From the NCBI GenBank assembly GCA_030428255.1, contig JAUIBT010000008.1, forward strand, positions 26,794-90,793: DNA of 64,000 bases, in the 5' to 3' direction. Source of the DNA: Alphaproteobacteria bacterium (GTDB taxonomy: Bacteria; Pseudomonadota; Alphaproteobacteria; UBA7985; JAUIBT01). The notes beneath the pieces are model-generated. The model made no database searches and was not told the origin of the DNA. It was given only the letters and a program-made list of their open reading frames with translations. The translations under genes were made by a program, and so were the position numbers. This document shows positions 44,427 to 54,592 of the stretch, one piece after another (the first letter of the stretch is position 1; every line of letters begins with the position of its first letter).

Positions 44427-46649
44427 TTAGGGGCGTCCTTGCACAGCCGGTGCTAGGCTGGGCTCGACCGGGATGCGCAACGACTTCAAAAAGGTGATCA
44501 GGGCGGCTTGGTCCTGATCGCTCAGCCGCCGGAACGCTGCAACCGAAGCGTTGGCTTCAGATGGTGCCAGGTTCTGGTTGCCATGCGGCGCCCGGCAGGT
44601 GTCGTCGGCATGAGCCAAAATCGCATCGCGCAGGCTCAAGGCGCGACCGTCGTGCATATAGGGCGCTGTGTTGGCCACGCCCCACAAGGGCCGGGTCAGG
44701 TAGAGATCGCGCTCGACCAGCAAGCCTTCACGATCAACCTGTTGGCCAAAGGGATCGGCCAGGCACGCGCCCATGCGGTGGCGCTTTAAGTCGCTGAACA
44801 GCGGCACGTCCACCTGGCCATCGGCATAGAACGGCAGACGTGGGAAAGAGGCAGGCAAGGCATCGACGCTGGGATCTTCCATGTTGAGATCAAAGGCGTA
44901 GGAGCCGACCAGCTCGCGCACCGCAGTCGTCAGGCTTTCTTGGGCAGCCTTTTCGCTCTGCACGTCTGCTTTGCGGGCTTCAGCCGCCAACAGGTCGATG
45001 GGCAGCGGGCGATCTTTGGGGCTCGCAACGCCCAGGCCGACCCCATCGTCAACCACCACGGGGCCGTCGCGCAGGCTCTCCTTGGCGGCCGCCACCTCGT
45101 TGCCCAGCAGCTCAGGATTGTGAATCCCGACCCAGGGGCTTTCCAGGCGCAGGCTGGACTTATGGCAGCTTGCACATTGGGCGTCTTGTTCGAAAACTTG
45201 CTGCCCACGCGCCAACAAACTGGCTTCGATTTGGTTCGATGCAGGGCGTTGGATTGGCGGGCGATTGGCTAGGGCAAACAGGGTTAGAGCGGTGACTTCG
45301 CCGACGCTCACCTCGTTGTGGACACCGTCTTGGTCCGCGTCGCTGGCACTTGGGAAGGCCTCGACAGGTTGCATACCAAAGTGGAAGTTCAGCGCATCAC
45401 GCACGAAATTGCGCATGTTAGATGCGATGCCTTTCCATTGGAAGGGTCGCACCACGAAGTCTTGGGAGACCCCCTCGATGCCCGAGCAATCTTCTTCAAA
45501 GCCGGGCAACGCGCCACAAACTCCCTCGACGCTGTTGCCGCCGTTGGGACGCTTGAGCGCGGCATAGATGCCAAAATCCACGCCCTTCGAGGTGAGGCGC
45601 GCTTCGTACCAATTGCCGGGGTCGCCCTCGGCGGCTTGCAAGACCAGCTCGCGCAGATACAGAAGATCGACGGTCATCTCTTGCGCCAGCTTTTGGCTAT
45701 AGCCCGCGCCCATGACGTGCGGTGGGTTGCGTAGATAGATGAAGGTGGCTGCGTGGTTGGCCGAATGGCCGCGCGCTTGCATCTCGGCCAGCAGCCAACC
45801 GGGAGGATTGGCTTGCAGCAAGGGGTTGATCATGGCGTTGACGGAGATGCCACCGGAGCCCGCAACGCGGTCGGGGCGGGCACTGAGCGCATTGGTCTGG
45901 GTGTCGGTCAATTGATCGACACCGGTCAGGTTGTGGCACTCTAGGCAATTCTGGCTGTCGAGGCCATGGACGCGCAAATATTGCACGTCAGGGAAAAATT
46001 CGAATGAGGAGCCTGGTGTGTTGCGCAATTGCTCCAGGCGGCTCATGCGCGGCCCTCCGGGGCCCTCGCCAAACCCGTCTTTGTTGGTGAAGGGTTGGGT
46101 GAACAGGTGGCGTCCGATTTCTTGGATCTCACGAAAGCTGAGCGCTCCGGTCTCAATATCAACCTGGCTCACACGCACGCCAGGCACCAGCGATTGGTCG
46201 GCATCGGCTGGACGCGGAAAGGCAGGCACATTGTGGTTGGCCGGACTGGGGGTCGCATTGGCCGTAGGACTGGGCGGCGGCGTGCCGGAGCGCCGCTTGA
46301 CCACCGTCGGCTGAGCCGCGTTATCGCTGGGCGGCTGGTTGTTCGCCTGCCCGTTATTTTGGGCATCGGCAGGCGGAGCCGGTGGGGCGGGCGGCGCAGG
46401 CGGTGTTGGCGGCGTGGGAATGTTGGTCGGTTGCTGTGGTGGGCTCGGCGGCGTTGGTTGCAGCAAGCCGCCGCCAGAGCAGCCAGGCGCATCGGGGTTG
46501 AAAATGCAGTTGAGATTTTGGCTCATGGCCGGGCTCGACAAAGCCAAGAGGCCGACGGTGAGAAGCCCAAGCTTGAGGCTGGTGACGCGCGAGGGGTGGC
46601 GCGCAGATCGCGGGTCGCTTTGGCCGAGCAGAGGAGAGGTGCCGTGCAT
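44427..46649 (-). CDS. Secreted di-haem oxidoreductase (DHOR/putative peroxidase family) with Pro-rich N-terminal linker
   Basis: Two CxxCH motifs (CLECH, CASCH), RPFQWKG, LFSDLKRH, TRPLWG, YMHDGRA..L.DAILAH, FLKSL; signal LGLLTVGLLALSSPAMS. Confidence 0.82.
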   Translation of the reverse strand: MHGTSPLLGQSDPRSARHPSRVTSLKLGLLTVGLLALSSPAMSQNLNCIFNPDAPGCSGGGLLQPTPPSPPQQPTNIPTPPTPPAPPAPPAPPADAQNNGQANNQPPSDNAAQPTVVKRRSGTPPPSPTANATPSPANHNVPAFPRPADADQSLVPGVRVSQVDIETGALSFREIQEIGRHLFTQPFTNKDGFGEGPGGPRMSRLEQLRNTPGSSFEFFPDVQYLRVHGLDSQNCLECHNLTGVDQLTDTQTNALSARPDRVAGSGGISVNAMINPLLQANPPGWLLAEMQARGHSANHAATFIYLRNPPHVMGAGYSQKLAQEMTVDLLYLRELVLQAAEGDPGNWYEARLTSKGVDFGIYAALKRPNGGNSVEGVCGALPGFEEDCSGIEGVSQDFVVRPFQWKGIASNMRNFVRDALNFHFGMQPVEAFPSASDADQDGVHNEVSVGEVTALTLFALANRPPIQRPASNQIEASLLARGQQVFEQDAQCASCHKSSLRLESPWVGIHNPELLGNEVAAAKESLRDGPVVVDDGVGLGVASPKDRPLPIDLLAAEARKADVQSEKAAQESLTTAVRELVGSYAFDLNMEDPSVDALPASFPRLPFYADGQVDVPLFSDLKRHRMGACLADPFGQQVDREGLLVERDLYLTRPLWGVANTAPYMHDGRALSLRDAILAHADDTCRAPHGNQNLAPSEANASVAAFRRLSDQDQAALITFLKSLRIPVEPSLAPAVQGRP

Positions 46650-46966
46650 AAGTGGTGCTCCGTGGCTGTGGTGGCGATGCGCGCTGGGGCGCGGGCGACG
46701 CGGCGCTTGGAATGCAGTGTCTGCAAGGCCCAGGATCGCGCGTGGTCGGCCCACCAGATGGGGGGATGCAGGACAGCAAGTGGGTTAGAGAGGGCAAAAA
46801 ATGCGGTGGACCAGGGCAATTTTCTGGCCGTCCTAGCGGCCATGCTGACCCCTGATCCAGCAAGGGGATGGCAAGCCTTGGCGCGTTGCCTGGCAGATGC
46901 GTACGGCATCTCCACCTCGGTGGCTGCGGGACTAGGTGCCGCAAAGCCACCTTCGGGGTTTGCGGG

Positions 46967-48733
46967 TTAGCGCACCTCGACCAAGAACAGCATCTCACCG
47001 AAGCCATCGACGCGGCGCAAGTTTGCCAACAGGGTCTCGGTGACCTCGCTCGGTTGGTACTGATAGGGTTCGTTATTCTCGTCCAGTTGCAGATTGAAGG
47101 CCTTCTGCCAAGCGGTCAGCGCCTCGGGCGACCAGCTTGCATGGGTGACGCATTGAACGAAGAAGTCATATTCGCCGCTTTGGCCGATCTGGCCGACGGC
47201 GAAATCGAAGGCCGCCGCCTGACCGGGGTAGAACAGCTCGCCGGGGGTGCCGTCTTTGCCCTTCAGAGCCATTGGCGCTTCGCTGAGCAAGAAAGACTCG
47301 TTGCTGTCATCGTTGGCCAGGCAAAGCGCGGCTTGCGGCTGTTCGGACTCGTTGAGCAACGTGAAGCGCAGCGTATCGCCCCAGCGCAGCTTGACCACAT
47401 CGCTGGCTCCTTTGACTGGTGACGGGTTGCGCAAGGCTATGATTTGGCTGAGGTCTTGCGGCGAGGCTTGGTCATCGCTCTTGCTCAGTGGATCAAGGCC
47501 CAACTCCAACTCGCGTTTGTCGGTCATGCCGCCGTTGTCGCTGTCGGCCAGCAGGGGATCGGTTTGGAACAGCTTGATTTCATCGCCGTCGTTCAGGCCG
47601 TCGCCGTCGCTATCGGCGGTATTGGGATCAGTGCCGTGCTGGCGCTCCTCTTTGTCGAACAAGCCGTCTTCATCGCTGTCGCGAGGGTTGGCGGTCAAAT
47701 CACACTTGAAGGCCTTCACACGGGTGGCCGCGGTCGAGATCAGTTCGACCACGCCATCTTTGACCAGCGTGTACTTGGTGGCATAGATCACCTCGCCTTC
47801 AGGGCTGGGGGTGTTGCCATCGCTGCTGGCATCGACTTGGATGTGCAGATGTAAGGGCACCGTTTCAGAGCGGCTAACGCCCAGGCTGTGCTCGGTCTGA
47901 AGGGTGCTGACCAGGGTGTTGCGGAAGCTTTGGCCGCAGGAGCCGCGAACGTTGCTCAGGATTTCGCCGCTAAAATTCTCAACCGGGGCAATATAGACGA
48001 TCTGATCCTGCTGGGCGCGAATGAGCTGGGCCAGTAGGCGCGCCTGGCTGGCGGCGTAGTCACGCAACCAGGGTTCGTCGATGCGCACCTGGTATTGGCC
48101 GACCACCTCAAGACACAGGAGGCCGCGATCATAGAGCTCAATCTTGATGTCGGCACGATTGCGCGCTGAGCTTAGAACCTCGATCTTCGCCATCACGCCA
48201 AAGGCCGCTTCAATCTGCTTGATAATCCGTCGGCCTTCTTCAGCGGTGGCCCCGCGCACGCTGACCAGAGAGGCAACATCACCACCTTCGCTCAGCGAGG
48301 CGAGGGGCAAATAGGCCTTGGTCACCGAGTCCTGCACAATCGATTTCACCCGGTCGAGCTGAAAGCTGGAAAGATCAGATGTGGCGCGGCTGAGGGCGAT
48401 GGGGTTGAGAACCGCCACCTGATAGTCACGGTCAATGCAGCTTGGTTTTTGCAGCATGCGCACAAAGGCAAAGGCAACATCGGCGGCGATGCGTTGGGAA
48501 AGGTCAAATTGCGGGCCCGCGCCAGGTCGCGCGGCGCGTTGTCCGGGGACCACTTGCGGTACAGGTTGACCAGCGCCAGGCTGCAAGATCTGGGCCTGGC
48601 TGGGGCCAGCCATCGAAGCGCCGCCGCCAATCGCCAGCAAGCAGGCTAGTGCGAGCAGCCTTGGGCGTGCTGCGGCGGTGGCTCGAGCGAGCAAGGCGGG
48701 AGGCAGGGCTGATAACTTTGAAGAAAGGCGCAT
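46967..48733 (-). CDS. Secreted protein with TSP3-like Ca-binding repeats and a C-terminal DUF4384-like domain
   Basis: Signal-like LLALACLLAIGGGASMA; DSDEDGLFDKEE, DSDGDGLNDGDE, DSDNGGMTDKRE each followed by a G/QxDP motif; LRWGDTLRFTL...LFYP...GEYDFFV resembles DUF4384. Confidence 0.7.
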   Translation of the reverse strand: MRLSSKLSALPPALLARATAAARPRLLALACLLAIGGGASMAGPSQAQILQPGAGQPVPQVVPGQRAARPGAGPQFDLSQRIAADVAFAFVRMLQKPSCIDRDYQVAVLNPIALSRATSDLSSFQLDRVKSIVQDSVTKAYLPLASLSEGGDVASLVSVRGATAEEGRRIIKQIEAAFGVMAKIEVLSSARNRADIKIELYDRGLLCLEVVGQYQVRIDEPWLRDYAASQARLLAQLIRAQQDQIVYIAPVENFSGEILSNVRGSCGQSFRNTLVSTLQTEHSLGVSRSETVPLHLHIQVDASSDGNTPSPEGEVIYATKYTLVKDGVVELISTAATRVKAFKCDLTANPRDSDEDGLFDKEERQHGTDPNTADSDGDGLNDGDEIKLFQTDPLLADSDNGGMTDKRELELGLDPLSKSDDQASPQDLSQIIALRNPSPVKGASDVVKLRWGDTLRFTLLNESEQPQAALCLANDDSNESFLLSEAPMALKGKDGTPGELFYPGQAAAFDFAVGQIGQSGEYDFFVQCVTHASWSPEALTAWQKAFNLQLDENNEPYQYQPSEVTETLLANLRRVDGFGEMLFLVEVR

Positions 48734-48848: not shown

Positions 48849-51413
48849 CTAATCACAACGCGCATTGGTGTCGATAATGCTCAAATATTTGCCATACGAG
48901 CAGCCCGAAGGCGTGGCGCGGCCCCACAAAGGCGTCTGGCAGCGTCCCTCTATGCAGGAAACACGATACCAGGAGCCTTCTTTGCCCGTGATTTCAACAA
49001 TGTCTCCACGATAGAGCTCGCCGACTTGCGAAAATCGCGTGCTGCAGCCATTCCGCACGGCCAGGAAGCCGCGCCCAGAGCTGTGGTTATAGCTGGATAT
49101 GGAAGCAATATTGGTGTTGACCCGCGCAATGGTGCAGCGCCGTTGGGTTTGTTCGGGTGGGCAGATTTGAAAGCCAGCATTGCGCTCAACTGACAAGACG
49201 GCGTTTGCGAGCTGCTTGGCCGAACTTGCGCTCAGATCTTGGCCTGTGACCTTAGAGAAGGTGCCCAGCGCCTTACGGGTCGCGCTGTTAAAGCTGCCGT
49301 CCAGGCTGCCGGCGTAGCAGGCGGTGTTGTAGAGCGCCAATTGCAGGCGGCGATAGGCTTGCTCTTTGCTGACGCAGATACCGTTGATGGTCACGCCTGA
49401 GCAGCTCAAGCTCTTAATCAGGCGCGCCGCTTCTTGAGAGACGCCCGGCACCTGTTCATAGCGCAAGGCGCAGCGCCGCAACATGGAGACTTGATTGGAT
49501 GACGAGGCCTTGGCTGCGTCCAAGCAGTCTTGCGCGGCCTGCCTGTCTTCGCGTTCGCAGGCCTGCTCACCGTATAGCTCGGCGCGGCGCAGTTCGGCGT
49601 CAATGTCGAGGAGTAGAGCGCCCGAATGACGACGCGCGCTCCACTCGGCTTGGAAATGTTCCCACTCTTGGCAGGAGCCAGTCGAGCGAAGTAGGGCAAG
49701 CTCTGAGAGAAATGTTTCCTGCATGACCTGCTGTTCAACCTCGCAAATCGCGTGGCGCTTGGCCTGATAGGGGCTCATGTCGTCGGGGGCTTTGGGGTGG
49801 TTTTGCCATTGGCCCAAGAAGGCATCCCAGTCCCGACAGGTCGAAGGATTAGGCATGAGGTCGAGTGCCGCCAGGAAGGCCGGTGAGGGTTGGTTTGGAT
49901 CGACTTCAGGCGTCGCGATGGTGTCCGGGGTGGTGCCCTGGGCTGGGTCGGGCGTGCTGGTTTGGCCGTCGGCGCTGTTGGTGGCGCCATCGCCGGTCGT
50001 CGCTAGATCGCTGCCGGGCGTTGGGCAAGTGCCGTCCAAAAGGCACTGACAAGAGGCTCCCGCCGCGTCGTTGCTATCGACGCAGGCTTGGACGGAGGCC
50101 TTTTGCGGGCAGCACTCACAGCGATTGAGCAAGAAGCTCATGCGGGTCAGCGCGCCAGAGCGGACAAAACTTTGCAGCAAATCGCTCTCGACTTTACAGG
50201 CGCTGGCCCGCGCCGACAGCAGGTTGATTTGGGTTTGCAGGGCTGCGCGTTGCTGCTCTTCTTCGCAGAACTCGCAGGTTAATGAGAAGCCGCGCAGCAG
50301 CTCCAAGGTCTCGGTGATGGTCTGCGGGTCGCTCGACGCCAAGGCTGTGTTGGCGGCGGCCATCAGCTCGTCGTTACGAAAGGCCTCGATAAAGGCACGC
50401 TCCTGATTGAGGCTGTAGCTGGGGTAGACCTCGCCGTCATAGCGGATCACCACCTCGTCGTCGTTCATACCGGTAAAGCTTGGGCGTTGTTGAAAGGCCG
50501 AGGTTTGGCCGCTGGCGGCCAGGCGTGCGAGGCGTTTGGCGATGGTTGCGGTGACGCTGGAGCGCATCTCGGCCGCGGTGATCTGGAAATCGCCGTTGGC
50601 ATCGGCCTTGCCGTCGTGCAATGCGGACATCAGCGCGTCGGTGAAGATGCCGCGCTGAAACTCGGTGTCCCAGACGGCAAAATCGGTATCGGGTGAGGTG
50701 GCGGCCCACAGGCGAATATCGGGCAATTCAACCGCCGCAGCCCGGCCCAAGGGCGGCGCGGAGACACCGCGCACCAGGCCGCCGGACTGCTGACCGTCGG
50801 CGCTGGGGTTCAGACCTGAGAAGCAGGATTCCAGCACCAGCGTAATACGACCGGTCTTCAGGCGACGGGCTTGCAATGTACGCAAGGCCGCCTCAAGGTC
50901 ACTCAGGCTAAGCGCTTGATCTGCCAGAAATTTTTGATCCGGATTGGCGTCAGTGGGCAGCAGGTAATTTTGAGTAAGGCTCGGGTCTTGCGGCGAATCG
51001 TGGGTGCCGTGTCCAACGTAGTAAATATAAAGATCGGTGTCTTGGGTCAGCACGAAATTGGCCAAGCTGCCGAGCCTCTGGCTGTCGCCAATCAGCTCTC
51101 GCATGCGGTTGGTGCCCAAATTATCGAAGCGGTGGACTTGGGCGCCCAGCACCTCGCTGGCGAACAGTGCGAAGGCGTTTGCGTCTTGGGTCGCGTAGGC
51201 GATGTCATCGGTTTGCAAGTAGTCCTGGTTGGCGATGATCAGGGCCACGGTCTGGCTGTAGGATTTGGGGCCGGTTGCTGGCGTTTCATCGCCGCGCGCT
51301 GTGCCAGCAAAGCCGCCAATCACCAAGACGATCCACAATCCGACGGCCACCAGTGCGCGCCGCGCCGGGTACTTTGAGAGGTAGGAGCAAGATGGGGCGA
51401 TGGCGCGTGTCAT
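48849..51413 (-). CDS. Secreted caspase-family (peptidase C14) protein with peptidoglycan-binding-like and SH3b-like C-terminal domains
   Basis: Signal/TM; ALIIANQDY, YYVGHG, YLLPTDA, LESCFSG, GIFTDAL; LQLAL..ACYAGSLDG.F...TRKAL; LAVRNGCST.F..VGEL..GD.V.ITG.EGSWYRV. Confidence 0.85.
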   Translation of the reverse strand: MTRAIAPSCSYLSKYPARRALVAVGLWIVLVIGGFAGTARGDETPATGPKSYSQTVALIIANQDYLQTDDIAYATQDANAFALFASEVLGAQVHRFDNLGTNRMRELIGDSQRLGSLANFVLTQDTDLYIYYVGHGTHDSPQDPSLTQNYLLPTDANPDQKFLADQALSLSDLEAALRTLQARRLKTGRITLVLESCFSGLNPSADGQQSGGLVRGVSAPPLGRAAAVELPDIRLWAATSPDTDFAVWDTEFQRGIFTDALMSALHDGKADANGDFQITAAEMRSSVTATIAKRLARLAASGQTSAFQQRPSFTGMNDDEVVIRYDGEVYPSYSLNQERAFIEAFRNDELMAAANTALASSDPQTITETLELLRGFSLTCEFCEEEQQRAALQTQINLLSARASACKVESDLLQSFVRSGALTRMSFLLNRCECCPQKASVQACVDSNDAAGASCQCLLDGTCPTPGSDLATTGDGATNSADGQTSTPDPAQGTTPDTIATPEVDPNQPSPAFLAALDLMPNPSTCRDWDAFLGQWQNHPKAPDDMSPYQAKRHAICEVEQQVMQETFLSELALLRSTGSCQEWEHFQAEWSARRHSGALLLDIDAELRRAELYGEQACEREDRQAAQDCLDAAKASSSNQVSMLRRCALRYEQVPGVSQEAARLIKSLSCSGVTINGICVSKEQAYRRLQLALYNTACYAGSLDGSFNSATRKALGTFSKVTGQDLSASSAKQLANAVLSVERNAGFQICPPEQTQRRCTIARVNTNIASISSYNHSSGRGFLAVRNGCSTRFSQVGELYRGDIVEITGKEGSWYRVSCIEGRCQTPLWGRATPSGCSYGKYLSIIDTNARCD

Positions 51414-51841
51414 TCAAAAGGCTTCTTTGGTCAGACGTGAGCGGTTGGGGCGAAGCTCAGCGTGTTGCGCGGTCCACGCAGGCACGAAACCGGGCTTGGC
51501 CCATGGATGGTGGAAACCTTTGGACCGGTTTCGGCCTGGTTCAGGAGCAGGTCCGGTTGCCGAGCTGGTTGGGCTTGTGTCATTCGAGCACTTTTGCCCC
51601 GGTCCTCACGCCCTCGTGAGTGCTTTGCTGGCCTTATGGCAGATTTGATCCAAATTTTTCCACGCTCGGGCTATAGTCTTACAACTGGAGACCAGGTGCA
51701 AGTCGCAGCTGGCCCAACACGTCGAGACGCCGGAGACCGGTGACGCGCAGCAGGACCAAGTCGGTCAGCCATCCGCGCGCAGGCACTAGATGCCACGAGA
51801 CCTTTCGGTGGACTTGCTGCGACGGAACAGAGGAAAGTAAC

Positions 51842-54592
51842 ATGGCAATCCAGACCACAGACGCTCCAGAGCGTTGGCTTCAACGCTCCCTGATTCTGGG
51901 CTCCCTGATTCTGGGCCTCCTGAACTTGCGTCTCTTGAATCTGCGATTCGGCGGTGTGCGCCTGATGATCCTTGCCGCCTTGGCCGGGCTCGCCAGCCTG
52001 TCTATGGCCAGTGCCGCTCACGCCCTGGGCAAGCCGGTGGTGGTGATCATTTCCAACAGCGACTATCAGCAAACCGACGATGTGGCCTACGCCGAGCGCG
52101 ATGCTCAGGCCTTTGCAGACTTTGCCAGCGACGTGCTGCAAGCACGCGTCGTTCAGTTATCGAACCTTGGCACCAACGCCATGAACGAGCTGTTTGGCGA
52201 TGGCCAGCGCCTGGGCTCCATTCGCAATTATATCACCACGCCCGATACCGACCTTTACGTCTATTACGCCGGCCACGGTACCCACGATGCGCCAGCACAG
52301 GGCCCAGCGCACAACTATTTGCTGCCCGTCGATGCCAACCCAGATCAATCCTTCTTGGCCCGCCAGGCCTATTCCGTTGAGGATCTGCGCGCCAGCTTGC
52401 AGCGCCTGCAGCAAGAGGCCATGCCCGATGGCCGCATTACGCTGGTCCTGGAATCCTGCTTCTCAGGTCTGAACCCCAGCGCGGATGGCAGCGCCAAAGG
52501 CTTGCTGCCCGGCGTGTCGGCACCGCCGCTTGGAAAGGCAGTTGATCTGGACCTACCGGACATTCGCCTTTGGGCCGCCACCTCTCCTGACACCGACTTT
52601 GCCGTCTGGGACGATCGCTTTGAGCGCGGGGTCTTCACCGACGCCCTGCTGTCAGCGCTCTATGGCGGCGCGGCTGACCGGGACAAAGATTTCCAAGTCA
52701 CCGCCCAGGAGATGCAGGCCTATGTCGCGCGCCGCATCAACCAGCAGGTCGCGAGCCTGACCCAGGCCGGGCTGGGTTTCCGCCAGCGCCCGACCTTCAG
52801 CGGTATGGCGGGTGATGAAGTGATTGTCACCTATCCCGCAGGCATCTACCCGACCTATGCCACCGACGAGCAGCGCCGCTATGAAGAAGATTTCGTAGCC
52901 TTCGAGCTGTTGGACAAGACCATGGGCGTCGTCGCGAGCGCTGACCCGCAAACCCTCAGCCAGTCGGTTGAGGAGGTGCGCGATTTCACCTCGACCTGCC
53001 AGTTCTGTCAGGACAATCAAAAGCTGTACCAGCGTATGAATGAGCTGCGCCAGCGCCTGCAAACCTGCCGCGCTGAGCAGCGCCTTTTGACTCGCATCGT
53101 TGAGCAGCAGCGCATGCAAAGTCTGCAACGCCTGGCCAGCCGCATGGAGTGCGGCTATGGCGCGACAGCCATTCAGGCTTGCGTATCAACCGGTGACTTT
53201 ACCTCAAGCGCCTGCCAGTGCTTGAGCGATGAGGACTGCGTGGCTCAATCCGAAGACCTAACCCCTCGCTGTGACGCGGCGCTGGCCAAAATTGGTGACC
53301 AACCGCTGGGCCAGCAAGGCGCGCTCTACGCCAGCTTTACTCAAGACAACCCGGACTGCGCCATTATCGACAGCAAGGCTAAGACCGCTCTGGCTGCTTA
53401 CTGCCAAGATCAAGCCAGCGCGGCTGGCGTCGGCCAGCAAACGGCGAGCCTGTCGGAGTTGACCGGCTTTGTCATCGCCCACCCCTATTGTCAGCGCGCC
53501 GTCGATCAGGCAGAGCAGCAAATCGCCGCTTTGGAGGTTGATGTTGCCAATCAGGCCTGCGAGCAGGCCTTTCAGGCCGCTGCGGATATGCAAGACCCAC
53601 AGCTCTTGACCAGCTTTATCCAAGCTATGCCCGAATGTACGCAGCAAGTCACACAGGCCGAAAACCTGCTGTCTGATCTGCAAGAACGAGTGGGCCAGTG
53701 CCAGCAGGCCTATTTCCAAGCCAGCGCCGCCGATGATTTGGAAAGCCTTGAGAGTTTCGCGCGCGACTACAGCGTTTGCGAGATCGAATTGGGCTTGGCA
53801 GAACAACGGATCGGTGAATTGCGGCAAGAACAGCAGCACATCCAAGAGGCCAGCGCCTGCATGGCCATCGCCGAAGAGCGCTTGCCGGTCAATACCGAAG
53901 AAGGTTTGGCTGTTCTCGAAGAGTGTTCGGTGGTGTTCGCCGATGTCGAAGGCATCACAGACCGCGCAGAACAACTGCGCTTGGATTATGCCAATCGCTG
54001 CGATCAGATCGACCTGGGCACCGACTGTTTGAGCCCGCACGAGGCCTACCTATCAGTGCAGAGTCAGCTCAAGCTTGCGGGCTGCTATACTGGCGGGCTG
54101 GACGGTGATTTCGGTCCCAAGTCGCGCGCGGCACTGGCGGCCTATAACAAGGCGACCGGCAGCAGCCTGCGTGTCGATAGCGAAGCGGGATTGATCGACG
54201 CCATCCACTGGCTGGCCTCTGTCTCTGGCCGGGTCTGCACCCGCCAGGCGCATTTGGACTACACCCGCCGCAAGGACATCGACCTGTCACGTCATGCCAA
54301 CGATATGTACAAAGATGGCCTGCGCCTGAGCGTATCCGAGTGTGCCGAACAGTGCAATGCGCTCAGCGGTTGCGTTGGCTTTGCCTACGTTACCAAGAAG
54401 AGCACCAAGTACGCCCGCTGTTGGCCCAAGTCGGATTTCGGCAACCGTTACAAAATCTCGGTCGTGGATTTCTATATCAAGCCGGGCGTCAAGGACACCA
54501 GCGTGTGGCCTAAGGCCAGCTCGCCTAAGATCAAGGGCACCTTCAATCTTGGCACCGGTAAGGGCACCATCACCTTTGGGACCAAGAACTAG
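51842..54592 (+). CDS. Secreted caspase-family (peptidase C14) protein with peptidoglycan-binding-like and PAN/Apple-like C-terminal domains
   Basis: GAGGA RBS; signal ...LAALAGLASLSMASAAHA; YYAGHG, LESCFSG, GVFTDAL; VQSQLKLAGCYTGGLDGDFGPKSRAAL; ECAEQC...GCVGFAY...RCWPK. Confidence 0.85.
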   Translation: MAIQTTDAPERWLQRSLILGSLILGLLNLRLLNLRFGGVRLMILAALAGLASLSMASAAHALGKPVVVIISNSDYQQTDDVAYAERDAQAFADFASDVLQARVVQLSNLGTNAMNELFGDGQRLGSIRNYITTPDTDLYVYYAGHGTHDAPAQGPAHNYLLPVDANPDQSFLARQAYSVEDLRASLQRLQQEAMPDGRITLVLESCFSGLNPSADGSAKGLLPGVSAPPLGKAVDLDLPDIRLWAATSPDTDFAVWDDRFERGVFTDALLSALYGGAADRDKDFQVTAQEMQAYVARRINQQVASLTQAGLGFRQRPTFSGMAGDEVIVTYPAGIYPTYATDEQRRYEEDFVAFELLDKTMGVVASADPQTLSQSVEEVRDFTSTCQFCQDNQKLYQRMNELRQRLQTCRAEQRLLTRIVEQQRMQSLQRLASRMECGYGATAIQACVSTGDFTSSACQCLSDEDCVAQSEDLTPRCDAALAKIGDQPLGQQGALYASFTQDNPDCAIIDSKAKTALAAYCQDQASAAGVGQQTASLSELTGFVIAHPYCQRAVDQAEQQIAALEVDVANQACEQAFQAAADMQDPQLLTSFIQAMPECTQQVTQAENLLSDLQERVGQCQQAYFQASAADDLESLESFARDYSVCEIELGLAEQRIGELRQEQQHIQEASACMAIAEERLPVNTEEGLAVLEECSVVFADVEGITDRAEQLRLDYANRCDQIDLGTDCLSPHEAYLSVQSQLKLAGCYTGGLDGDFGPKSRAALAAYNKATGSSLRVDSEAGLIDAIHWLASVSGRVCTRQAHLDYTRRKDIDLSRHANDMYKDGLRLSVSECAEQCNALSGCVGFAYVTKKSTKYARCWPKSDFGNRYKISVVDFYIKPGVKDTSVWPKASSPKIKGTFNLGTGKGTITFGTKN
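51886..51945 (+). repeat. 15-bp in-frame tandem repeat (4 copies, progressively diverged) in the caspase N-terminus
   Basis: CTCCCTGATTCTGGG x2, CCTCCTGAACTTGCG, TCTCTTGAATCTGCG. Confidence 0.8.

Follow-up and report, generated by a model that had tools for sequence, protein, structure and literature searches.

Why would a bacterium keep two copies of what looks like one caspase-type peptidase back to back, and finish each of them with a different end? The question is raised by a 64,000-nucleotide stretch of contig JAUIBT010000008.1 from an alphaproteobacterium (assembly GCA_030428255.1), which is called the window below. Two of its genes read away from each other: gene A (48849..51413, minus strand), an open reading frame of 854 residues with 28 cysteines, and gene B (51842..54592, plus strand), one of 916 residues with 27 cysteines. 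Both are predicted to encode exported peptidases of family C14, the orthocaspase type. A third paralog, C, is encoded elsewhere in the same genome.

The account that we favour, and consider on balance probable, is that A, B and C are ancient, Sec-exported, disulfide-rich peptidases of the C14 (orthocaspase) type, with A and B tethered to the cell wall. We read them as exported, disulfide-bonded peptidases of the envelope because they have signal-like N-termini, 25-28 cysteines and, in A and B, wall-binding domains. Each of the three consists of a putative signal peptide, the catalytic domain, a helical domain rich in cysteines, a helical spacer that varies and a presumed targeting end. In A and B the PG_binding_1 domain would anchor the protein to the wall, either within the periplasm or on the cell surface, and the last domain, SH3b-like in A and PAN/apple in B, would pick the ligand or the substrate neighbourhood. 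C, which has neither SH3b nor PAN, ends in an unrelated beta-rich domain. The ends would then bring a single kind of proteolysis to ligands or substrates that differ from one part of the envelope to another, and the paralogs would be sub-functionalised by localisation rather than by catalysis.

One catalytic core in two divergent genes

The catalytic domain of A spans residues 56-318 (50460..51248, minus strand) and matches Pfam Peptidase_C14 (PF00656) over positions 3-229 of the 233 in the model, with an E-value of 8.9e-12 and 45.6 bits against a cut-off of 21.4. Pfam places the same family above its cut-off in all five A orthologues and in all four C orthologues. In B the domain covers residues 66-326 (52037..52819, plus strand) and is 63% identical to the core of A, and two of the B orthologues, P0007 and P0008, match Peptidase_C14 with 57.6 and 53.9 bits.

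The putative catalytic dyad is formed by His135 (codon 51009..51011) and Cys197 (codon 50823..50825) in A, on the minus strand, and by His145 (codon 52274..52276) and Cys206 (codon 52457..52459) in B, on the plus strand. The histidine, in GHG, and the cysteine, in ESCFSG, are invariant in all 14 members of the family. When aligned, they fall on the GHG and AC columns of P0029, a strong C14 protein (103 bits) whose C14 domain is only ~23% identical to A, and on those of two other C14 proteins. We take the two columns to be catalytic on the strength of known family motifs. With the His-Cys dyad intact, A and B would be true enzymes and not pseudo-orthocaspases. Three acidic residues, D77, D242 and D244, are also invariant in the family, and we presume that they lie in the S1 pocket. 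Since the paralogs do not differ in the surroundings of the active site, they probably share one specificity; by analogy with other ortho- and metacaspases, they probably take Arg or Lys at P1.

An earlier note on this DNA, made from the letters and their translations, had pointed to four peptides shared by the two proteins, to a common cysteine scaffold and to a PG-binding-like domain in both, and each of these observations holds. GHGTHD, (G)RITLVLESCFSGLNPSADG, GVSAPPLG and LPDIRLWAATSPDTDFAVWD are all present as identical runs, and C.FC, QAC and C.CL are invariant cysteine columns in the 14 family members. BLASTP aligns A and B in two segments, the first of 433 residues at 51% identity (E 3e-141) and the second of ~200 residues at 31% (E 5e-15), which includes the PG-binding-like part. 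Pairwise alignment in windows along A locates the drop in identity. The paralogs are 62-78% identical at A residues 59-257 and 28-50% at 258-457; identity then falls to 20% or less in the spacer (~458-540), recovers to 30-42% at ~544-610 and at 665-724, where the PG-binding domain lies, and is again 20% or less from residue ~745 to the end. The PG-binding-like domain is thus present in both proteins, and the similarity stops after it. Taken by domain, identity between the two is 63% for the C14 core and 34% for the Cys-rich middle domain.

The likeness extends to the DNA, where the two genes form inverted repeats of 217 nucleotides at 70% identity and of 59 nucleotides at 92%, the latter over the block that holds the active-site Cys codon. 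Recent gene conversion was considered as the source of the identical peptides and was ruled out, despite the 59-nucleotide block: within these peptides 26 of the 60 codons differ synonymously between A and B, so the identity comes from selection on the protein and not from a recent copy or conversion.

Predicted export signals, cysteines and targeting ends

Gene A opens with a predicted signal peptide or anchor, residues 1 to ~41 (51291..51413, minus strand), a reading taken from the sequence and from the alignment, in which the signal segment of the A orthologues ends A-x-A before Q. The corresponding segment of B, also a predicted signal peptide or anchor, is long (51842..52024, plus strand) and ends AHA before LGKP. 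As read from the alignment, the A, B and C groups all start with a hydrophobic core and A-x-A motifs. The start of B bears on the length of this segment. Its reading frame is open from a GTG at 51740 to 54592, and the GTG would give a protein of 950 residues. The ATG at 51842 is the more likely start, because GAGGAAAG lies just 5' of it and because both the public gene call P0010 (916 residues) and the orthologues agree on it. Tandem Repeats Finder also reports a tandem duplication of 15 nucleotides (2.1-2.4 copies, 51885-51923) in the part of B that codes for the signal peptide; it yields LILGSLILG and makes the N-terminus of B longer than that of its orthologues.

Behind the core, A, B and C have in common a Cys-rich helical middle domain, which in A covers residues 321-465 (50019..50453, minus strand) and in B, by alignment, residues 327-468 (52820..53245, plus strand). 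Eight of its cysteines, between positions 380 and 463 in A numbering, are invariant, and the paralogs are 34-37% identical over it; the proteins as a whole have 25-28 cysteines each. The domain belongs to no known family: it has no Pfam match, and its best Atlas score of 0.80 is within the range of shuffled sequences. The spacers that follow are more variable. Residues 466-674 of A (49392..50018, minus strand), a low-complexity linker and helical region, are the least conserved part of the protein, with a mean identity of 61% among A orthologues and of 18% to B. In B, residues 469-728 (53246..54025, plus strand) consist of helical repeats in which an F..(P).C motif recurs, and are closer to C than to A.

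These features bear on the reading of A and B as cytoplasmic cell-death or anti-phage effectors of caspase type. Such a role is suggested by the general reputation of bacterial caspase homologues and by a PADLOC caspase match for A, which is weak (E 0.012, 12.8 bits). It is opposed by the signal-like N-termini, the 25-28 cysteines and the PG_binding_1, SH3b and PAN domains described below, and also by the neighbourhood, which holds no defence genes; PADLOC finds nothing for B or for the secreted protein with TSP3 repeats encoded downstream of A. With the single weak match to A as the whole yield of PADLOC, the defence-system reading was rejected, and we regard it as scarcely credible.

The favoured reading, of enzymes held at the envelope, leans on the domains that come after the spacer. 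In B, residues 731-795 (54032..54226, plus strand) seem to form a PG_binding_1 domain, identified from a Pfam match below the cut-off together with a fold model. The profile of the B C-terminus finds the N-terminal peptidoglycan-binding domain of SleB in the PDB with an E-value of 0.0032. The model of the domain has a predicted local distance difference test score (pLDDT) of 93-97, and it superposes on the SltB3 domain (VIA Z 8.4, root-mean-square deviation (rmsd) 1.9, 58 residues aligned) and on the N-terminal domain of SleB (VIA Z 8.0, rmsd 2.3, 61 aligned). As modelled, B has the three-helix PG_binding_1 fold. The like domain of A, residues 675-745 (49179..49391, minus strand), is assigned from its 32% identity to the B domain, and from that only, within the BLASTP segment of E 5e-15.

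The end of A is a Cys-rich, SH3b-like domain by its sequence (residues 760-854; 48852..49136, minus strand), with a Cys-rich insertion ahead of the last strand. It matches Pfam SH3_3 (PF08239) with 27.9 bits against a cut-off of 27, over positions 3-38 only of the 54. The other A orthologues score 25.4, 29.1, 27.5 and 27.1 bits, which places four of the five, the A of the window included, at or above the cut-off. A six-frame search of the genome itself puts the A match at 32.5 bits, above the cut-off and seventh of 15 matches, and hhalign aligns the end of A with a profile built from eight SH3_3 domains of this genome at 93.25% and an E-value of 2.8e-7 over 39 columns.

The combination of PG_binding_1 with SH3b is typical of wall hydrolases, and the structural neighbours of the domains include SltB3, SleB, L,D-transpeptidases and endolysins. 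It may therefore be asked whether A and B act on the wall itself, as transpeptidase- or amidase-like enzymes on peptidoglycan-linked peptides, or serve there as a scaffold or pseudo-enzyme without proteolysis. Paralog C adds to this view, as it adjoins a gene that we take, from a motif, to be an undecaprenyl-diphosphatase. The intact His-Cys dyad in 14 of 14 members speaks against a pseudo-enzyme, and we know of no precedent for a C14 enzyme that acts on peptidoglycan. A role of this kind seems very improbable.

The end of B is different. Residues 800-884 (54239..54493, plus strand) are assigned as a PAN/apple domain from their phmmer relatives and from a fold model, and are followed by a basic Gly/Lys-rich tail (54494..54589, plus strand) that is predicted to be disordered, with a pLDDT of 49-64 over the last 30 residues. 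A phmmer search of 1.84 billion representatives with the last 136 residues of B returned 65 proteins at E-values up to 0.001. Thirty of these were scanned, and 28 carry PAN_4 with at least 27 bits; of the remaining two, P0023 scores 25.9 bits and P0038 has no match. Four cysteine columns of the B domain align with those of the PAN matches. The model of the domain, with an overall pLDDT of 86, resembles the PAN domain of plasminogen (VIA Z 10.3, rmsd 2.1, 75 residues aligned), the N domain of hepatocyte growth factor (HGF; VIA Z 10.2, rmsd 2.1, 78 aligned) and the apple domain of TgMIC4 (VIA Z 8.9, rmsd 2.0, 69 aligned), and the apple domains of apicomplexan proteins and coagulation factors as a group give VIA Z values of 8.6-8.9. 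As modelled, the end of B has the PAN/apple fold. The claim of the earlier note that the two proteins end in different modules, SH3b in one and PAN/Apple in the other, is accordingly sustained, for A by the SH3_3 and hhalign matches and for B by the relatives and the fold; it did not turn out that the C-termini neither match nor fold as SH3b and PAN.

PAN_4 also recurs in other bacterial proteins, beside PG_binding_1 in P0023 (185 residues), beside Trypsin_2 in P0025 and beside Peptidase_C14 in P0029. From these sequences, PAN looks like a reusable targeting module of exported bacterial proteases.

A third paralog, the history of the pair and a possible dimer

The third paralog bears on how the pair arose. 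C is a protein of 869 residues encoded on another contig of the same genome (G000:C6:196240-198849, minus strand, equivalent to L003 280..2889, minus strand). Its core is 60-62% identical to those of A and B, and it shares their Cys-rich middle domain and is without the PG-binding domain. It also has long helical repeats of the FIRSNPSC type and a different, beta-rich C-terminal domain of ~105 residues, for which Pfam gives only DUF7154 (E 0.04, in two orthologues) and for which the best Atlas score, 0.85, is within the range of shuffled sequences. Besides the undecaprenyl-diphosphatase-like gene mentioned above, C is flanked by what we take to be a uvrB-like gene. The genome also encodes a fourth, distant C14 protein (L004 205..2244, minus strand, on G000:C36) of 679 residues and 28% identity, in which a PG_binding_1-like domain (21.3 bits) is accompanied by a beta tail rich in Lys and Gly. 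Upstream of it lies an open reading frame of 459 residues that carries no annotation.

The proteins found in the databases fall into three orthologous groups, of five A, five B and four C sequences, and the five A orthologues are 70-100% identical. Among the reference genomes, all four that belong to the genus carry the three genes in a ratio of 1:1:1, with A and B head-to-head on the same contig and C elsewhere. The other 18 genomes of the order gave only one weak family match (E 5e-10). Of 401 genomes sampled from the class, six have a match at E-values up to 1e-15; the close family is present only in the sample's two genomes of the genus (G000 and G003), and the matches in the other four are 31-36% identical. 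The family records are metagenome-assembled genomes labelled Alphaproteobacteria or uncultured Rhodospirillaceae. The host of the window is an uncultured alphaproteobacterium of marine type. The nearest relatives outside the genus are 29-36% identical, and distant relatives carry CARDB or PAN repeats. The architecture thus varies among homologues, as is seen both in these relatives and, within the same genome, in paralog C, whose cores are joined to other C-terminal domains.

The earlier note had explained the pair by an inverted duplication followed by an exchange of the last module, which would have given something like a small polymorphic family of receptor-proteases whose two members might also heterodimerise. 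Several observations fit. The head-to-head arrangement with its DNA-level inverted repeats supports a local inverted duplication, and A and B share PG_binding_1 and differ in the last domain, as module exchange would have it. The first part of the scenario is complicated by the third paralog. A maximum-likelihood tree computed from the core together with the middle domain joins B to C and not to A, at a moderate support of 84/76; the outsiders of this tree were four proteins of 29-30% identity and the fourth C14 protein of the genome, its root is a midpoint only, and one branch is very long. B and C are moreover similar over ~650 residues (42-44%, by tblastn against the C orthologue loci), as compared with ~430 for A with either B or C. 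The A/B pair would then not simply be the youngest duplication. Since the family has three members and the tree joins B with C, a simple inverted duplication followed by a swap is not demonstrated, and a local inverted duplication behind the pair is possible. What stands is a pair of paralogs with different last domains. It is a fair inference from the sequences that the last module was replaced in the history of the pair, because A and B have the PG-binding domain in common and part ways beyond it. A unit of PG_binding_1 and PAN also exists on its own, as P0023, with its 185 residues, is 40% identical to the end of B.

The polymorphic part of the scenario did not survive. Each group keeps its own module in all four genomes of the genus and on one further contig. 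Identity between orthologues is 84-85% in the terminal modules, which is close to the 88-89% of the core and well above the 51-69% of the spacers. Because the modules are kept in this way, fixed and selected functions are indicated, and not an exchange of cassettes. The 26 synonymous differences in 60 codons, together with the orthologues of A, B and C in 4 of 4 genus genomes, mark the split as old and the family as fixed.

The remaining part of the scenario, the heterodimer, was examined by predicting a complex of the A and B catalytic domains. The model scores 0.61 and the best of three controls 0.00, on a measure whose mark is reached by 116 of 157 solved complexes and by 2 of 215 mismatched pairs. 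Agreement between the runs extends to 100% of the contacts, and the pLDDT of the partner is at least 81. The predicted interface is symmetric and small, with 27-29 contacts, and is formed by the regions of the GTN and DANPDQ motifs (100-113 and 155-166 in A; 110-123 and 164-175 in B), to which no catalytic role is assigned. Chain 1 makes its contacts through 14 residues, of which ~10 do not vary, or hardly vary, among A, B and C; homodimers are therefore equally compatible with the model. The C14 cores may thus dimerise through a surface largely conserved in all three paralogs. The claim of heterodimerisation passed the test of the model, and the interface that the model proposes fits homodimers as well. 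Taken whole, with the third paralog, the old split and the even-handed interface set against it, the proposal of a local duplication that gave a polymorphic, heterodimeric family seems unlikely.

We also considered a broader arrangement, in which A, B and C form both homo- and heterodimers through this surface of GTN and DANPDQ motifs, peculiar to the family, and a single protease particle could display two targeting ends, for example SH3b and PAN. This is quite improbable. If it were true, mixed dimers would let an envelope protease be addressed combinatorially, in a system that possibly works with the TSP3-repeat protein and the di-haem enzyme encoded downstream of A.

Against this material, how secure is the favoured reading of A, B and C as exported, disulfide-rich peptidases, with A and B held at the wall? 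The architecture of the proteins, their paralogy and their conservation throughout the genus are established, as are the PAN and PG_binding folds in the models of B. Export, disulfides, proteolytic activity, specificity, wall tethering and the division of labour are what we infer from sequence, and this is the first of several points that weigh against the reading. Others concern the core. At E-values up to 0.05-0.1, Pfam does not list Peptidase_C14 for the B of the window or for three of the five B orthologues, and NCBIfam caspase_w_EACC1 scores B at 41 bits against a cut-off of 140 (domain E-value 1.6e-10). No solved structure matches the core by sequence, either with the 14-sequence family profile (E up to 1) or with a single core (E up to 10), and because no solved relative was found the dyad is assigned by alignment only.

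The targeting domains have points of the same kind on their debit side. PG_binding_1 (PF01471) scores 18.0 bits in B against a cut-off of 23, and the B orthologues score 18.1-22.8, all five of them below it; for A, Pfam lists the domain in one of five orthologues, at 16.9 bits and again below the cut-off. PAN_4 (PF14295) scores 24.5 bits in B against a cut-off of 27; within the group of five B orthologues the scores are 24.6, 26.8 and 22.1, all of them below it, and two of the five are unlisted at E-values up to 0.05. The top Foldseek rows for the B domain are overwhelmingly PAN/apple, with none at an E-value of 0.001 or better and the best at 0.02. An AlphaFold2 model of the A end (180 residues, from a four-sequence alignment) has a mean pLDDT of 41.2, too low for a fold search, and the A profile finds the SH3b nuclear magnetic resonance structures 2kt8 and 2kyb in the PDB at E-values of only 0.089 and 0.22. 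No relatives of the SH3b module were found beyond the five A orthologues among proteins of 469-1495 residues, and none among those of 30-468. As for the complex, the test was run on our own alignments with a calibration that is only rough, and, as a model, it cannot tell an A-B pair from A-A, B-B or pairs with C.

Surroundings of the pair and comparison with known systems

The divergent intergenic region (51414..51841) that makes up the 428-nucleotide spacer contains a conserved block of ~110 nucleotides at ~51600-51710, which in a comparison of four genomes is much better kept than the rest of the spacer. It includes a palindrome, TCACGcccTCGTGA, at 51606-51619 and a stretch that is near-invariant in the four genomes at 51638-51684. 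The block may be a shared operator or promoter of the two genes. A scan of the intergenic region with Rfam found no family at threshold; animal long non-coding RNA families came up as sub-threshold chance matches and were discarded. Between 46500 and 55000, a sigma-70 scan gave no promoter-like sites, and the nine terminator-like structures are no excess over the 7.7 of shuffled sequences. This DNA is carried by 13 runs from six studies, among which there is no RNA dataset that would bear on expression.

Downstream of A lies a gene for a secreted protein with bacterial TSP3 repeats, of the calcium-binding type (46967..48733, minus strand; Pfam TSP3_bac, 2.9e-15). The gap between the two is 115 nucleotides, and the gene is possibly co-transcribed with A. 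It is followed by a gene for a di-haem cytochrome c peroxidase-like protein of the DHOR or MbnH-MauG-like kind, with a Pro-rich N-terminus (44427..46754, minus strand); its matches are weak, to Pfam DHOR at 2e-9 and to NCBIfam CytoC_perox at 6.4e-10, the latter under the cut-off. Genes for an M24 peptidase, B, A, the TSP3-repeat protein and the di-haem peroxidase-like protein follow one another in this order in the window and in three other genomes (L005, L006 and L007).

This neighbourhood gives some room to a different destination for the enzymes. A and B could be released effectors or adhesin-proteases that attach by PAN and SH3b to algae, protists, other bacteria or particles. Domains from apicomplexan adhesins and from blood proteases that bind glycans or proteins are among the structural neighbours of the PAN domain of B, the secreted TSP3-repeat protein stands directly downstream of A and is syntenic in four genomes, and the DNA is present in biofloc metagenome runs, which are possibly the source samples. 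PG_binding_1, on the other hand, suggests retention on the producer's own wall, and no dedicated secretion-system genes were seen beside the A/B pair. We think release distinctly unlikely, and return to A and B as enzymes that stay with the envelope of the producing cell.

Bacterial caspase homologues are abundant, especially in Alphaproteobacteria, and to our knowledge almost none has a known substrate or cellular role. The A/B/C trio, with its near-identical active-site region and its distinct, conserved targeting domains, offers a clean natural system for the study of exported orthocaspases in the envelope, and suits the question of how accessory domains direct such enzymes. B adds a bacterial example, supported by a structural model, of a PAN/apple domain joined to a protease. 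The trio does not reveal a new kind of system.

The proteins resemble the bacterial orthocaspases and metacaspases covered in two surveys (PMC3501461, PMC6426788). Prokaryotic caspase homologues that start with a helix or a signal peptide and carry extra domains of various kinds are well documented there. A putative peptidoglycan-binding domain is recorded in 11 of 671 prokaryotic metacaspase sequences, and SH3 and PAN each occur zero times in the main text (PMC3501461). Orthocaspases are described as having optional C-terminal extra domains, as cleaving after basic residues and as being plentiful in Alphaproteobacteria (PMC6426788). A and B share with these enzymes, which are frequent in that class, a C14 domain, putatively of the p20 type, with its predicted His-Cys dyad, the optional N-terminal helix or signal peptide and the variable C-terminal domains. 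Unlike the surveyed orthocaspases, the A/B/C lineage occurs, in the genomes searched, in a single genus only and has a Cys-rich middle domain of its own.

Closer to B in particular are proteins that join PAN to other domains. P0023, with PG_binding_1 and PAN in 185 residues, has the same two-domain end as B (E 3e-13). P0029, with C14 and PAN repeats, is of the same enzyme class with a different core, and P0025, with Trypsin_2 and PAN, has the same PAN_4-type domain, again with a different core. A single literature search turned up no description of a bacterial C14-PAN fusion, and the papers that it listed concern only oomycetes, fungi and plants; to judge from the sequence of P0029, the combination of C14 with PAN already exists elsewhere. 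In eukaryotes, PAN/apple domains are joined to protease or protease-like domains in plasma prekallikrein, factor XI, plasminogen and HGF, which the model of the B domain resembles with VIA Z values of 8.6-10.3. Those proteins have serine-protease folds and N-terminal PAN domains, whereas B is a putative clan CD cysteine peptidase with a single PAN at its C-terminus, and at 12-21% sequence identity between the PAN domains the likeness is an analogy of design and not membership.

On the side of the cell wall, A and B resemble SleB, SltB3, L,D-transpeptidases and endolysins in their wall-targeting modules, PG_binding_1 and/or SH3b, and differ from them in the catalytic domain, which is predicted to be a caspase-fold peptidase and not a glycosidase, amidase or transpeptidase. 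Set beside all of these, A, B and C make up a new lineage, restricted to one genus, within an already known kind of protein, in which domain shuffling is fairly ordinary for bacterial caspase homologues.

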